Program-made: the position numbers and the translations under genes | The notes under the pieces: generated by a model | The model's database searches: none | What the model was told of the DNA's origin: nothing | What the model saw: only the letters and a program-made list of their open reading frames with translations | Source of the DNA: Sphyrna mokarran | Lineage: Eukaryota | DNA: 64,000 nt | Direction of reading: 5' to 3' | NCBI GenBank assembly: GCA_024679065.1 | Contig: JAGIQG010000012.1 | Span: 38,812,001 to 38,876,000 of the forward strand | Shown: in pieces, positions 12,300 to 22,800 of the stretch | Numbering within the stretch: position 1 is the first letter of the stretch | How the letters are laid out: each line of letters begins with the position of its first letter

Positions 12300-12850
12300 G
12301 AAATGAACTCTTGTGAATAATGTCATCCTTCCGCTGGCAGTTGACAAATAATAACGGACGCAGGCTAAAGATCTGTGTGTATGTGTCTCTGTGTGTGTAT
12401 GTGTCTCTGTGTGTGTATTTGTGTGTGTGCCTTCTTCCTGATAGCCCTGCTCGTACTTGTGCAGAGCACGAATGTTAAAAGCTTTTTTCTGGGGGAGTGC
12501 ATTTGACCAGTCGCCCTGTGCCCATGAGTTGCAGGCAGTTTGGGTTGGTTAGGGTTGGGTAGTGGTGGTGGGGTGGCATGGTGGCGAGGAGGGGGGGGGG
12601 GAGGGGAAGGAAGAGTATTGGAGTGGTTTTTGAAGAGAGAGAGAGAGAGGAGGAGGAGGTGCTGTGGGTGGGTGGGTGGGTGGTGGGGGGGATGATGGAT
12701 TGATTGGAAAGCTGCCTGGAGCTGCTATTGGGTAAGCTGTAGCAGTGAGTGTGAGTGTGAGTGTGTGTCTCTGATCAGTGGGCTTTGTCCAGCCCCGTGT
12801 CCCTGGGTATGTATCATTGGCTTGCTGTCTCCTCTCGCCCTGCCCAGCCA
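12300..12850 (+). promoter_or_regulatory. BCL11A: BCL11A promoter region with simple repeats and G-tracts
   Basis: Immediately upstream of the UTR-like block; TG-rich 12375-12429, poly-G 12591-12601, (GA)n 12633-12648, (GTGTGA)n 12745-12768. The TSS cannot be determined from sequence. Confidence 0.6.
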
Positions 12851-13041
12851 CCTCCTGACGTTCAAGTTCGCGGGCACGTCACGTACGCACTTGAACTTGG
12901 TGGTTTTAAAGCCATGACGGCTATCCCACAATCCATCTCCAGCCGCCATCTTTGTATTATTTCTAATTTATTTTATGTCAAGCCATTGATGAAGATATTT
13001 TCTCTGGAGTCTCCTTCTTCCCGCTCCCGATGTGACCGAGC
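12851..13041 (+). other. BCL11A: BCL11A 5'UTR (non-coding part of exon 1)
   Basis: Blocks CTCCTGACGTTCAAGTTCGC, GCACTTGAACTTG, AAAGCCATGACGGCT, GCCATCTTTGTATTATTTCTAATTTATTTT and TGATGAAGATATTTTCTCTGGAGTCTCCTTCTT match my recollection of the human 5'UTR and directly precede the start codon. Confidence 0.8.
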
Positions 13042-13096
13042 ATGTCTCGCCGCAAGCAAGGCAACCCTCAGCACTTGAGTAAACGGGAATTTTCAC
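13042..13096 (+). CDS. BCL11A: BCL11A coding exon 1 (55 nt; MSRRKQGNPQHLSKREFS plus 1 nt)
   Basis: N-terminal MSRRKQxxP NuRD/RBBP4-binding motif; BCL11A-type SKREFS; phase-1 donor GTGAGT at 13097. Too short for the ORF track. Confidence 0.97.
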
Positions 13097-13494
13097 GTGA
13101 GTAGCTTTTTTTGGGGGGGGGGGAAATTTTTTTTTTCTTTCTTGTTTGTTGTTACTTTTCTTCTCCTTCCTCCTCCTCACCACCCCCCCCACCGATTTTT
13201 CTTTTTTCTTCAAAAAAAATTAAATTGTGAAAAAGGGAAGAGAGAAAAATCAAAGCTGGTGGTTGCTCTCTTAGGAAAGTGGAGGTAGTTTAGTGAGGGA
13301 AGGTGGTAGAGGTGGGGGGGGGGGTGAGGGGGCAGTGAGCGCCGGGCTGTCCGGACCGTTTGACAGCAAGTGGCCGGAGAGAGGGAGCGGGACAGCGGCT
13401 GTGGTCCGAGACACCCCCCTTCCTCCTCCCCAGCCCGCGCCTGTTTCAGCTGCAGCTCTCTCCCCTCCTTTCCTCCTCACAAACTCCTTGTCCG

Positions 13495-19047: not shown

Positions 19048-19380
19048 CTGATTCCCTGGAAGCCATTCTCACAGATGAAGAAGAGGAACATGGCACCTTG
19101 GGAGCCCCTGAGGGTGACCACGACCTCCTTACCTGCGGCCAGTGTCAGATGAATTTCCCACTGGGAGACATTCTGATCTTTATTGAGCACAAAAGGAAGC
19201 AATGCAATGGCAGCCTCTGCTTGGACAAAGCTGTGGATAAGCCACCATCACCGTCTCCCAGTGAGCTGAAAAAGGCATCCACACCTGTCGAGGTTGGCAT
19301 ACAGGTCACACCAGATGATGATGATTGCCTTTCTACATCATCGAAGGGAGTTTGCCCCAAACAGGAAAGCACAGCGGCAG
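19048..19380 (+). CDS. BCL11A: BCL11A coding exon 2 (333 nt), C2HC zinc finger ZnF0
   Basis: Polypyrimidine tract and AG at 19046-19047; joins exon 1 in frame as [71 protein letters not shown]...CPKQESTAA; donor CAG|GTAAA at 19381. Confidence 0.98.
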
Positions 19381-19524
19381 GTAAAAAATACCAAACACAA
19401 TATCAAACCAAACAAACATCCATACACAAACAGAAATAAGCAGAGAAAAACACAAACCTTGTTGTATCCCTTTTTCCCCCTGTTTTTGTTTTAATCAGAG
19501 TGCTGCTGCTAGTCCCTGAGTTTC

Positions 19525-19812
19525 TATCAGCTGTCAGCATTTGCACTGTAATTAAACATAGCCCCTTGGCAAAATGACATGGGTGACCTTGACTTTAAGA
19601 TGCCATTTATACTCGCCAGGCCAGAGTTAAGAGGGCAGTTGCTGAAGCGCACAGACATGCTTATTCGAAAGTTTAAGGGCATGTTAGAAATTTCAAAGGT
19701 TGGTTTGACAGGAAAGGCCACTCGATGCACCAAGTCTCCTCAGTGGAATGATAAATGCCTCTCGCTTTCTCTCTGTTTTGTGATGTGGTTCTGACAGATG
19801 TATCTTGATTTT
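19525..19812 (+). promoter_or_regulatory. Probable conserved non-coding element at the start of intron 2
   Basis: TGTAATTAAACA...TGACCTTGACTTTAAGATGCCATTT...GAGGGCAGTTGCTGAAGCGCACAGACATGC...TGACAGATGTATCTTGATT resembles human BCL11A intron 2 as I recall it; contains homeodomain, nuclear-receptor (TGACCTTG) and YY1-like motifs. Confidence 0.6.
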
Positions 19813-22800
19813 TCTTTCTACTGTGGTTTCTCCTGCTACATTTCACCCTCTTATGCTTTCTCTGTTTCTCTGTCACTGCATGAGTGTTGCTCTTTCTATC
19901 TCTTTCTCTCTTTTTTGTTTGCGTCTGACTCTCCTCTTCCTATCTTTCTCTCTCATTCTCCTGATGTCAAATCAAAATTTACCAAATTTTACTTACTTAA
20001 GAGTTCTTGCAGAAATTCCAGTTTATCTTTTGAGTGGTTAAATTTAGTCTTTCTTTAAATTTGATTATTATTTTTGTAGTTAATTATCCAGAATATTGGT
20101 AGCAAAAATAGCAATGTATAAATTTAAACCATTATCCATTTGAGTTCATATTGAGTGTAAATTATCACTGTTACAGTGCTCAGTTCTCTTAACTCTGATA
20201 TGAAATAATCAAATCTCTGTAAATTCCTTTTGCTAGTGCTTTGTGATAGGAAATAAAGAAATTAAAATAGAATGAATTATTCCTTGTTTTTAACAAAAAT
20301 GTTTTTAATTTGGGGAAAAATTATAGAGCTTAGAATAAATGTGTGTCATGATTCCTTGTTGCTGAGTCGTCATTGGAAATCTTATTTTCCTTTTATTAAA
20401 AATATTAAGTCTGTATGCACATTAGTTACTTAACCACTGAAGCTGTATTAAATCTAATTTCATTATAATAATTTATAATTGCTTAATCAAAGATGCAAAA
20501 TCACAAAAAAACTCCAATATAGGAATGTATTTCAGATATTTATTTAATGATATGTAATTATATAGGAAGATATCCAGCACACACTTACAGGAGAAAAATG
20601 CTTTATTTTGATTGAAAATGTAATTCAGGCTTTTACCTCCTTCAGTTGCCTCTTTTTGTTCACTGTTTAGATAAATTATGTTTCTACTTTTTCTCTGAAG
20701 ATTTAGTGGGTTGCATTATCATTCCAATAAATGTGAAGCTTCTGTATTGCAGTGAGAAGCGAGTTAGAGATTCTTTGAGGGGACAAATAATACAGCAACC
20801 ATTTATATATGTTGTCTGAGATATGAAGGAAAATGAATACAAATACAGAGCATGATTAATGAATCAGGAGTCTGGCGGAAGGGGCTTCTAGCCTTTAGAG
20901 ACTGAAAAAGCCATGCTAAATCGCCAAATATGGAGTATTGCTTAAGTGATGCAACCTCCTATTTACATATTGAGAAGAGCAGCTCAAAAGACATACCACA
21001 CAAATACCGTCAAACAAATGTGATCTAGATTGCTCAGAATGGACCCTGAAAGTCTAGAGTGCGCAGTAGATTTATGTGCATTGGAAAAGCACAGATATGC
21101 AGTAGGACAACAGGCGGTCACACTCACAAATAGGGTGTATTTAATATATATATATATATCTATATAGTATATATGATGCTTGATTCGCATGAGAAATGGA
21201 AAGCAAATAATGTTGCCTTGAGATGTGTGTTTTTGGGAGTTAAATGGTGGAAGATATTTTGTTCAATCAGTATCGCTCAATTATTATTCAAAATTGTAAA
21301 TATTTGAAAATTCTGTAACAAAATTCTATAATGTGCCCTTTAATAATTTTTATATTTTACACAGTAACCGTGTGTCTACACATATGCTAGAGCTCCCTGT
21401 CCTGGCACTAAGTAATAGAAAAGTTAAAATTGTTTCTCTTGATTAATTTGTTGTAATTTTACAGCCCACGTTCACAAACTTGTTTTTTCTGTCTGTGATG
21501 ATAATGTGCTTTCATTTTACTAAAGGATCCCTGAGAAATTGTTAGTATTCTGACCAAGTTGTCATGTTCAAGTTTGTCATTGCCAGTTGTGGAAGATTGT
21601 AAAGGAAGTGCAATCATGGGCTTTTTCATTACATTAAACAGATTGACCATTAAACAGTTTATTTATTGCCCATTTTGATGGTGGTGGTGAGCTTTGTAGT
21701 GTACACGGTGTGTTTATTCTTCAGTGATGTAGGAAATAAACATTGTATTTTTGTTACTTTAACAAACTTGACAATAGATTGTGCTTTACTTTGATAAATC
21801 AGGTTAGATGAAAGTTTTATTGTATTTTCAGCTTTGTAAAAAATTAGAAGCAAGGCTGGCTGCCTAATGTGGTACATCATTTGTTAGCCAGGGTAATCAG
21901 CCACTGTCTTAGGATACCATCCTAGCCAGAAGCGTCTGCACTCCGTTCTCTTTGTTGTAATTAGCTAATTGACAAATATGAAATTAAGTGACGAGTTTAT
22001 TTTATATATTATTCAGTTTTAAAAAGTTGTCAAAAGAATTGCATTATGTAGCAGATAATTTACCATCTGAATTTTTATATTCATATTGGCAAGCCTTTGT
22101 GAAATAAAGGCATTTAGTGCCTAGTCGGCCATTTCCTGGCACCACGCCATTTCTTTCCCTAAAGCTCGAAGCACTGGGCATCTTGAGCGTTCAACATCGT
22201 GCTCTATGCTGGTTACGTATTGAACACTGGTTCAACAGTACTGACCAGGGCCACTGGCTTCTTCTCATTTTATGATGTTTTTTTTCTCTCATTGATTTGG
22301 CACCAGTGTCTTGACATGTTCCTTATTCAGTGTCTGAGAGACACCTTGGCACGGGAAAGAGCAAGGTGCAGAGTGGATGAGGTCAACCTAGATCCCAGCA
22401 GGGTTTTAGTGTTCTTCATTTGCCTTTACAATCAGAGCTCAATTATCAAGCCTGAGTGTGGCCCTCAGGTGTGAGCTCAGATGGGATCATGTAAATGTCC
22501 TGTGAGATGCGATGCTGTAATATTAATGTTATTCATGAGTGCACAGTAATATTGTTCTGCACTGGAAGTGGCAGCTCTGGGTATGCCACCTTTTGGGAAA
22601 TGGGCACGGCCCTTTTTTTAATAGAAAGAAATAAGAATTCTCCTGCAACGTTTCACGGTCGTATGATGAATGTTGATGAACAATAAATAAATTGCAATTT
22701 GCAGCACATTGCCAATTTTTTTTGCTAGATTGCAAGTTGTCAGCAGTGTTTGTTATAGTGCTGTCTACATTTGTATCTGAACAGTAAGATGCTTTACGAG

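Follow-up and report, generated by a model that had tools for sequence, protein, structure and literature searches.

A conserved element with an acceptor-like AG near the start of BCL11A intron 2 in Sphyrna mokarran

Known routes to short BCL11A products

Fetal haemoglobin silencing and the development of B cells and of the brain depend on BCL11A dosage. ZnF0-only isoforms of the protein are already known (PMC1526750, PMC7158892), and it has been proposed in PMC12006351 that they modulate multimer formation. According to PMC4974071, BCL11A-S is cytoplasmic unless paired with L or XL, so that a form with ZnF0 alone would probably work through heteromers, and it may have a dominant-negative effect. 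The 22 human GenBank isoforms include a 142-aa form (XS) and a 130-aa read-through form, both without DNA-binding fingers; short human isoforms, which an earlier note on this DNA invoked, do exist, and a 131-aa form is absent among the 22.

Human BCL11A transcripts also end within intron 2. The supplement of Singh et al. 2018 (PMC5928244) lists a poly(A) peak at hg19 chr2:60,768,920-60,769,019 that retains 385 coding nt (exons 1-2) and is used at 0.19 in naive B cells, 0.61 in blood B cells and 0.82 in plasma cells; early termination in intron 2 is real in human B cells. Two general results from the same paper bear on how such ends are made: skipped terminal exons prefer 5' sites in long introns, and 61.6% of assembled intronic polyadenylation (IpA) isoforms are composite, a type that does without an acceptor. 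The main text of the paper does not name BCL11A, despite the 0.82 use in plasma cells. With XS lacking DNA-binding fingers and a polyadenylation site present in human intron 2, the core concept of a short BCL11A product is largely known.

Exon layout and the candidate acceptor in shark

The window, 64,000 nt of a Sphyrna mokarran contig, contains the cartilaginous-fish BCL11A. Its exon 2 shares 98% identity with whale shark protein P0138, the shark ZnF0 matches the solved human fragment PDB 9BV0 at 27/27 residues, and the promoter and 5' UTR (window 12830-13040) match CONDOR elements 4623 and 4624. The 5' part of the gene is laid out as follows.

13042..13096, + strand: BCL11A exon 1 coding part (MSRRKQ NuRD motif), 55 nt; phase-1 donor at 13097
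19048..19380, + strand: BCL11A exon 2, encoding ZnF0, 333 nt; donor GT at 19381
19381..19439, + strand: exon-2 donor read-through, reaching a stop at 19437-19439 and giving a 148-aa ZnF0-only product that requires no new acceptor

Exons 1 and 2 together hold 55 + 333 = 388 coding nt, or 129 codons plus one nucleotide. The intron that begins at the exon-2 donor is 108,065 nt long, with exon 4 as the first exon identified beyond it; no exon 3 of mammalian type was detected in it (window 19381 to G000:C224:38939445), which fits the shorter non-mammalian spacer described in PMC12006351. Judged from the genomic sequence, shark exon 2 would splice directly to exon 4, like that of other non-mammals. 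A third, divergent BCL11-like gene lies at G000:C949:6265346-6293340 (L003, L008), with 46-48% identity in exon-2-like and exon-4-like parts that are ~28 kb apart; we take it to be a possible ZNF296 orthologue.

The earlier note had read a splice from the exon-2 donor into a short exon that stops almost at once, and the sequence facts it gave for this hold. The AG at 19742-43 is followed by 52 nt without AG up to the next one at 19796-97, and joining 19380 to 19798 reads G|AT GTA TCT TGA, with the stop at 19806-19808 and a product of 132 aa.

19744..19795, + strand: AG-free run, 75% pyrimidine at -40..-5 and 56% at -20..-5
19793..19811, + strand: conserved 19-nt core with the candidate acceptor AG 19796-97, D-V-S codons, TGA 19806-08 and E-box CAGATG
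19810..19960, + strand: long pyrimidine-rich stretch past the stop, up to 88% pyrimidine, with an RBFOX-type TGCATG at 19877

As an acceptor the site is weak. Upstream of the AG the branch-point-like yTnAy occurs at about -90 and -4 only, with no branch consensus at -18..-40, and the pyrimidine stretch after the stop is stronger than the tract that precedes the AG. On an approximate matrix, 656 of 6957 AGs in the intron score at least as high as the candidate; the corresponding counts are 166 for the real exon 2 acceptor and 3 for that of exon 4. Sixteen of 6954 intron AGs are YAGs that equal the candidate in AG-free run and in pyrimidine content at -40..-5. Four of these sixteen add to this a stop within 20 codons as well as an AATAAA no more than 600 nt away (two of them with two AATAAA), on thresholds that were set on the candidate site itself. 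A stop within 20 codons follows 72% of all intron AGs, and one within the first three codons follows 17%. The single-genome features of the site are modest against chance; what exceeds chance is the identity of the core in three species.

Several neighbouring signals were considered. CTGAC at 19791-19795, just 5' of the candidate AG, itself fits the branch-point consensus and has a long pyrimidine run behind it, and a second CTGAC at 19925-19929 is followed by a 95% pyrimidine run, with AGs downstream that score poorly. Other acceptors after the long tract (19883, 20000, 20011, 20020, 20078) were rejected, each scoring below 19796; a U12-type donor at 19800 was rejected in view of 37 similar 7-mers in the intron, and a recursive splice site because the junction is not AG|GT. 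Two ORFs spanning the site had no homologues.

A protein with the predicted tail was sought among BCL11A homologues. Of 239 proteins fetched, 235 contain the end of exon 2 (the other four were left out), and none of the 235 carries a D-V/I-S tail, a count of limited power since only 59 start at MSRRKQ, most of the others being genomic read-through or ab initio calls; the main mammalian cluster is represented by 15 of its 36 members among the matches listed. Products in which exons 1 and 2 are spliced and intron 2 is read through are present in the databases (P0139, P0003, P0122); the shark-like Logan protein P0139 joins exon 1 to exon 2 and runs on into the intron. Known mammalian short tails did not map onto the shark intron.

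An element shared with human and zebrafish

In both the human and the zebrafish file of PMC3261376, a 12-nt motif from the junction matched CONDOR element CRCNE00004626; it also matched one unrelated human element, 2550, with different flanks. Since its neighbours 4623 and 4624 correspond to the 5' region of BCL11A in shark, 4626 can be taken as the orthologue of the shark site. It is catalogued as a human-fugu-zebrafish conserved non-coding element (CNE) (Parker et al. 2011, PMC3261376, additional files 7 and 9).

19769..19850, unstranded: shark orthologue of CRCNE00004626, ends approximate, compared by eye

In this by-eye comparison positions 19793-19811 are identical across shark, human and zebrafish, so that AG, D-V-S codons and TGA are all retained, with every degenerate codon position fixed. 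The sequence upstream of the AG is AG-free and ~70% pyrimidine in all three species; the differences at -9..-6 are pyrimidine-to-pyrimidine only, and a T-to-C change in zebrafish destroys TGACAG while the acceptor is retained. Conservation extends ~40 nt beyond the stop and takes in a second TGTGG. High mammal-fish identity, a place outside coding sequence and location in the orthologous gene, by which vertebrate CNEs are recognized, were all found here. The earlier note had made conservation of the AG and stop its test, and both are kept in human and zebrafish, with transcription-factor-like motifs kept alongside; the human junction that it described is real, and a 13-nt motif from the "upstream block" that it also placed in human has no match in the CONDOR files.

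The 12-nt core motif gave no match in the 2011 VISTA file, in which line breaks could mask one, and a 12-nt motif of the next CNE is absent from the window. An ultraconserved element (UCE) that we take to overlap human BCL11A exon 2 has a near neighbour. The supplement of PMC11276968 lists a human UCE 553 nt from that one. A blastn search with 19381-21000 found nothing in the initial 30 kb of the BCL11B-like locus (roughly one fifth of intron 2 there), in 30 kb of the third paralogue or in L009, and a 17-nt pattern for a paralogous copy had four genome matches, as did its control (four). A metagenome scan for orthologous loci reduced 139 pattern matches to one locus, an uninformative BCL11B-like fish contig.

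The element and its upstream flank carry the following motifs.

19528..19592, unstranded: upstream motif cluster, with an E-box/MEIS composite at 19528-36, TAATTA at 19549-54 and a nuclear-receptor-like 9-mer at 19584-92
19784..19789, unstranded: RUNX-like TGTGGT, unchanged across shark, human and zebrafish, lying within the supposed pyrimidine tract
19822..19827, unstranded: second RUNX-like TGTGGT, the same in human and TGTGGG in zebrafish, 3' of the stop

The names RUNX-like, E-box and nuclear-receptor-like are presumptive; MEIS and PBX-HOX are names taken from papers. RUNX-like pairs no more than 40 bp apart number four in 108 kb. With motifs chosen after looking, four TGACAG in 340 bp make this the densest spot of the intron (shuffle P=0.001), and the region holds two of the intron's six TGACAG plus E-box composites. 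The RUNX-like motif and the E-box are kept in the three species and the MEIS motif is lost in zebrafish; MEIS motifs mark CNE enhancers (PMC3261376, PMC4489388). A PBX-HOX-type TGATNNAT (also GATA-like) lies at 19749-19756, 43 bp from TGACAG sites on either side. The spacing of TGATNNAT agrees with the loose hindbrain enhancer syntax given in PMC4489388, without the stricter KR ending.

How is the element best read? At roughly even odds (about 0.5), it acts as DNA, a transcription-factor binding module, and the AG-DVS-stop is a by-product. The site is the core of a CNE that lies close to the 5' end of BCL11A intron 2 and is common to the three species. RUNX and bHLH factors, with MEIS-type factors too in shark and human, would bind it and enhance BCL11A transcription, and short ZnF0-only RNAs would arise by known routes, either donor read-through to intronic poly(A) or intron-2 exons such as XS. 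An enhancer is favoured over a terminal-exon acceptor because the RUNX-like and E-box motifs are conserved together with the AG. Also counted in its favour are invariant purines that an acceptor does not need or disfavours (TGTGG at -14..-10, G at -5, A at -4), the paired RUNX-like motifs around the E-box, the dense TGACAG cluster, the fixed degenerate codon positions and the conservation past the stop, as well as the weak acceptor, the 0/235 DVS tails and the missing 131-aa human form, the 130-aa read-through form being listed. Counting against it are the pyrimidine-preserving changes at -9..-6 and the zebrafish change that breaks TGACAG and spares the acceptor; the AG-free, pyrimidine-rich upstream part common to all three species counts the same way, and regulated alternative exons also have splice sites that are weak and conserved base for base.

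Competing readings and comparison with known systems

Could the AG be a real, weak and regulated acceptor after all? It would then open a skipped terminal exon whose RNA ends at an intron-2 poly(A) site, yielding a 131/132-aa protein with the NuRD motif and ZnF0 at the expense of full-length product. We regard this as possible, though rather unlikely. Both AATAAA hexamers that the earlier note placed downstream are there, each in a good context.

20252..20257, + strand: AATAAA, upstream TGTA, downstream T-rich (3/98 intron hexamers as T-rich)
20334..20339, + strand: second AATAAA, downstream G/T-rich (4/98 intron hexamers as G+T-rich, 6/98 as T-rich)

The intron holds 0.91 AATAAA per kb, and two are no excess over the 1.47 expected in shuffles of this locally A+T-rich stretch (P(>=2)=0.45). 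Between 9.5 and 14.5% of local 40-mers are as T-rich as the hexamers' downstream context, which is therefore partly explained by local T background. What keeps the terminal-exon reading live is the conserved CAG, with AG, frame and stop identical in three lineages, the upstream changes that keep a pyrimidine, and the human poly(A) data, in which the peak leaves exactly 385 coding nt at a use of 0.19-0.82 (supplement of PMC5928244); the preference of skipped terminal exons for 5' sites in long introns also suits it. Set against these are the weak score, the lack of a branch consensus, the conserved purines in the tract, and the failure to find an annotated product in the 235 homologues or the 22 human isoforms. 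By what we take to be the exon-2 coordinate, the human peak also lies ~4 kb into the intron, not 0.9 kb as the shark hexamers do. The predominance of composite IpA isoforms (PMC5928244) weighs against it as well.

The fullest form of the terminal-exon reading is doubtful. Here an acceptor kept base for base since the shark-human split would divert BCL11A RNA, ahead of the 108-kb intron, to a short terminal exon. This exon would be the as yet unannotated 5' end of the intron-2 poly(A) isoform dominant in human plasma cells, whose ZnF0-only subunit would dilute BCL11A tetramers; the arrangement would be a built-in dimmer, and splice-switching oligonucleotides could engage it to reduce BCL11A.

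The same landmarks could matter in RNA that is never spliced at this point, as a decoy acceptor or a platform for RNA-binding proteins that slows use of the exon-2 donor and promotes read-through to intronic poly(A). The sense-strand pyrimidine bias on both sides of the AG, the RBFOX-type motif (which falls outside the published CNE), the exon-1/2-spliced read-through products and the heavy intron-2 polyadenylation in human (supplement of PMC5928244) are in line with such a role, but any gene with so long an intron should yield read-through contigs from its nascent RNA, and we consider it improbable.

Very improbable is a poison cassette exon that triggers nonsense-mediated decay (NMD), the other version put forward in the earlier note. 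A conserved AG followed at once by a stop is what such an exon would present, poison exons often overlap ultraconserved sequence (PMC13542418), and NMD would conceal the product from protein databases. This version lacks a credible donor: within 600 nt of the AG the best scores 4.76 (at 20341) and the second best 1.99, where the real donors reach 6.73 and 8.55 (approximate matrix), and by eye nothing resembling a donor stands out where the human and zebrafish elements are conserved.

On the best reading, the transcription-factor binding module, the site is one more catalogued CNE, a putative enhancer, in a CNE-rich gene (21 UCEs are listed in BCL11A). If the AG is used, a jawed-vertebrate-wide element would be tied to an already measured, strongly regulated early termination (19-82% in human B-lineage cells), with a single editable dinucleotide available. 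A literature search, thin on subscription papers, found no published description of the junction or of a splice reading of the element.

Among known systems, the ultraconserved poison exons of SR-protein genes are similar in their base-level conservation around a splice-like site and premature stop, but they are cassettes with a conserved donor, and none is apparent at the shark site. Human BCL11A-XS (142 aa, AAU04557.1) and the 130-aa CRA_d (EAX00038.1, P0122) likewise consist of exons 1-2, with the NuRD motif and ZnF0 and no C2H2 fingers. XS differs in its 13-residue tail, which comes from another exon that tblastn did not find in the shark intron, and CRA_d in that it reads through the donor, like the shark 148-aa read-through. 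The human 5' IpA isoform resembles the shark candidate in ending in intron 2, retaining 385 coding nt and being regulated over B-cell stages, while its site is farther from exon 2 than the shark hexamers. CRCNE00004626, finally, is the same sequence as the shark site, with an identical 19-nt core and matching flanks; it is listed as a human-fugu-zebrafish CNE only, with no function or splice reading of it seen in PMC3261376, and the shark copy is added here.
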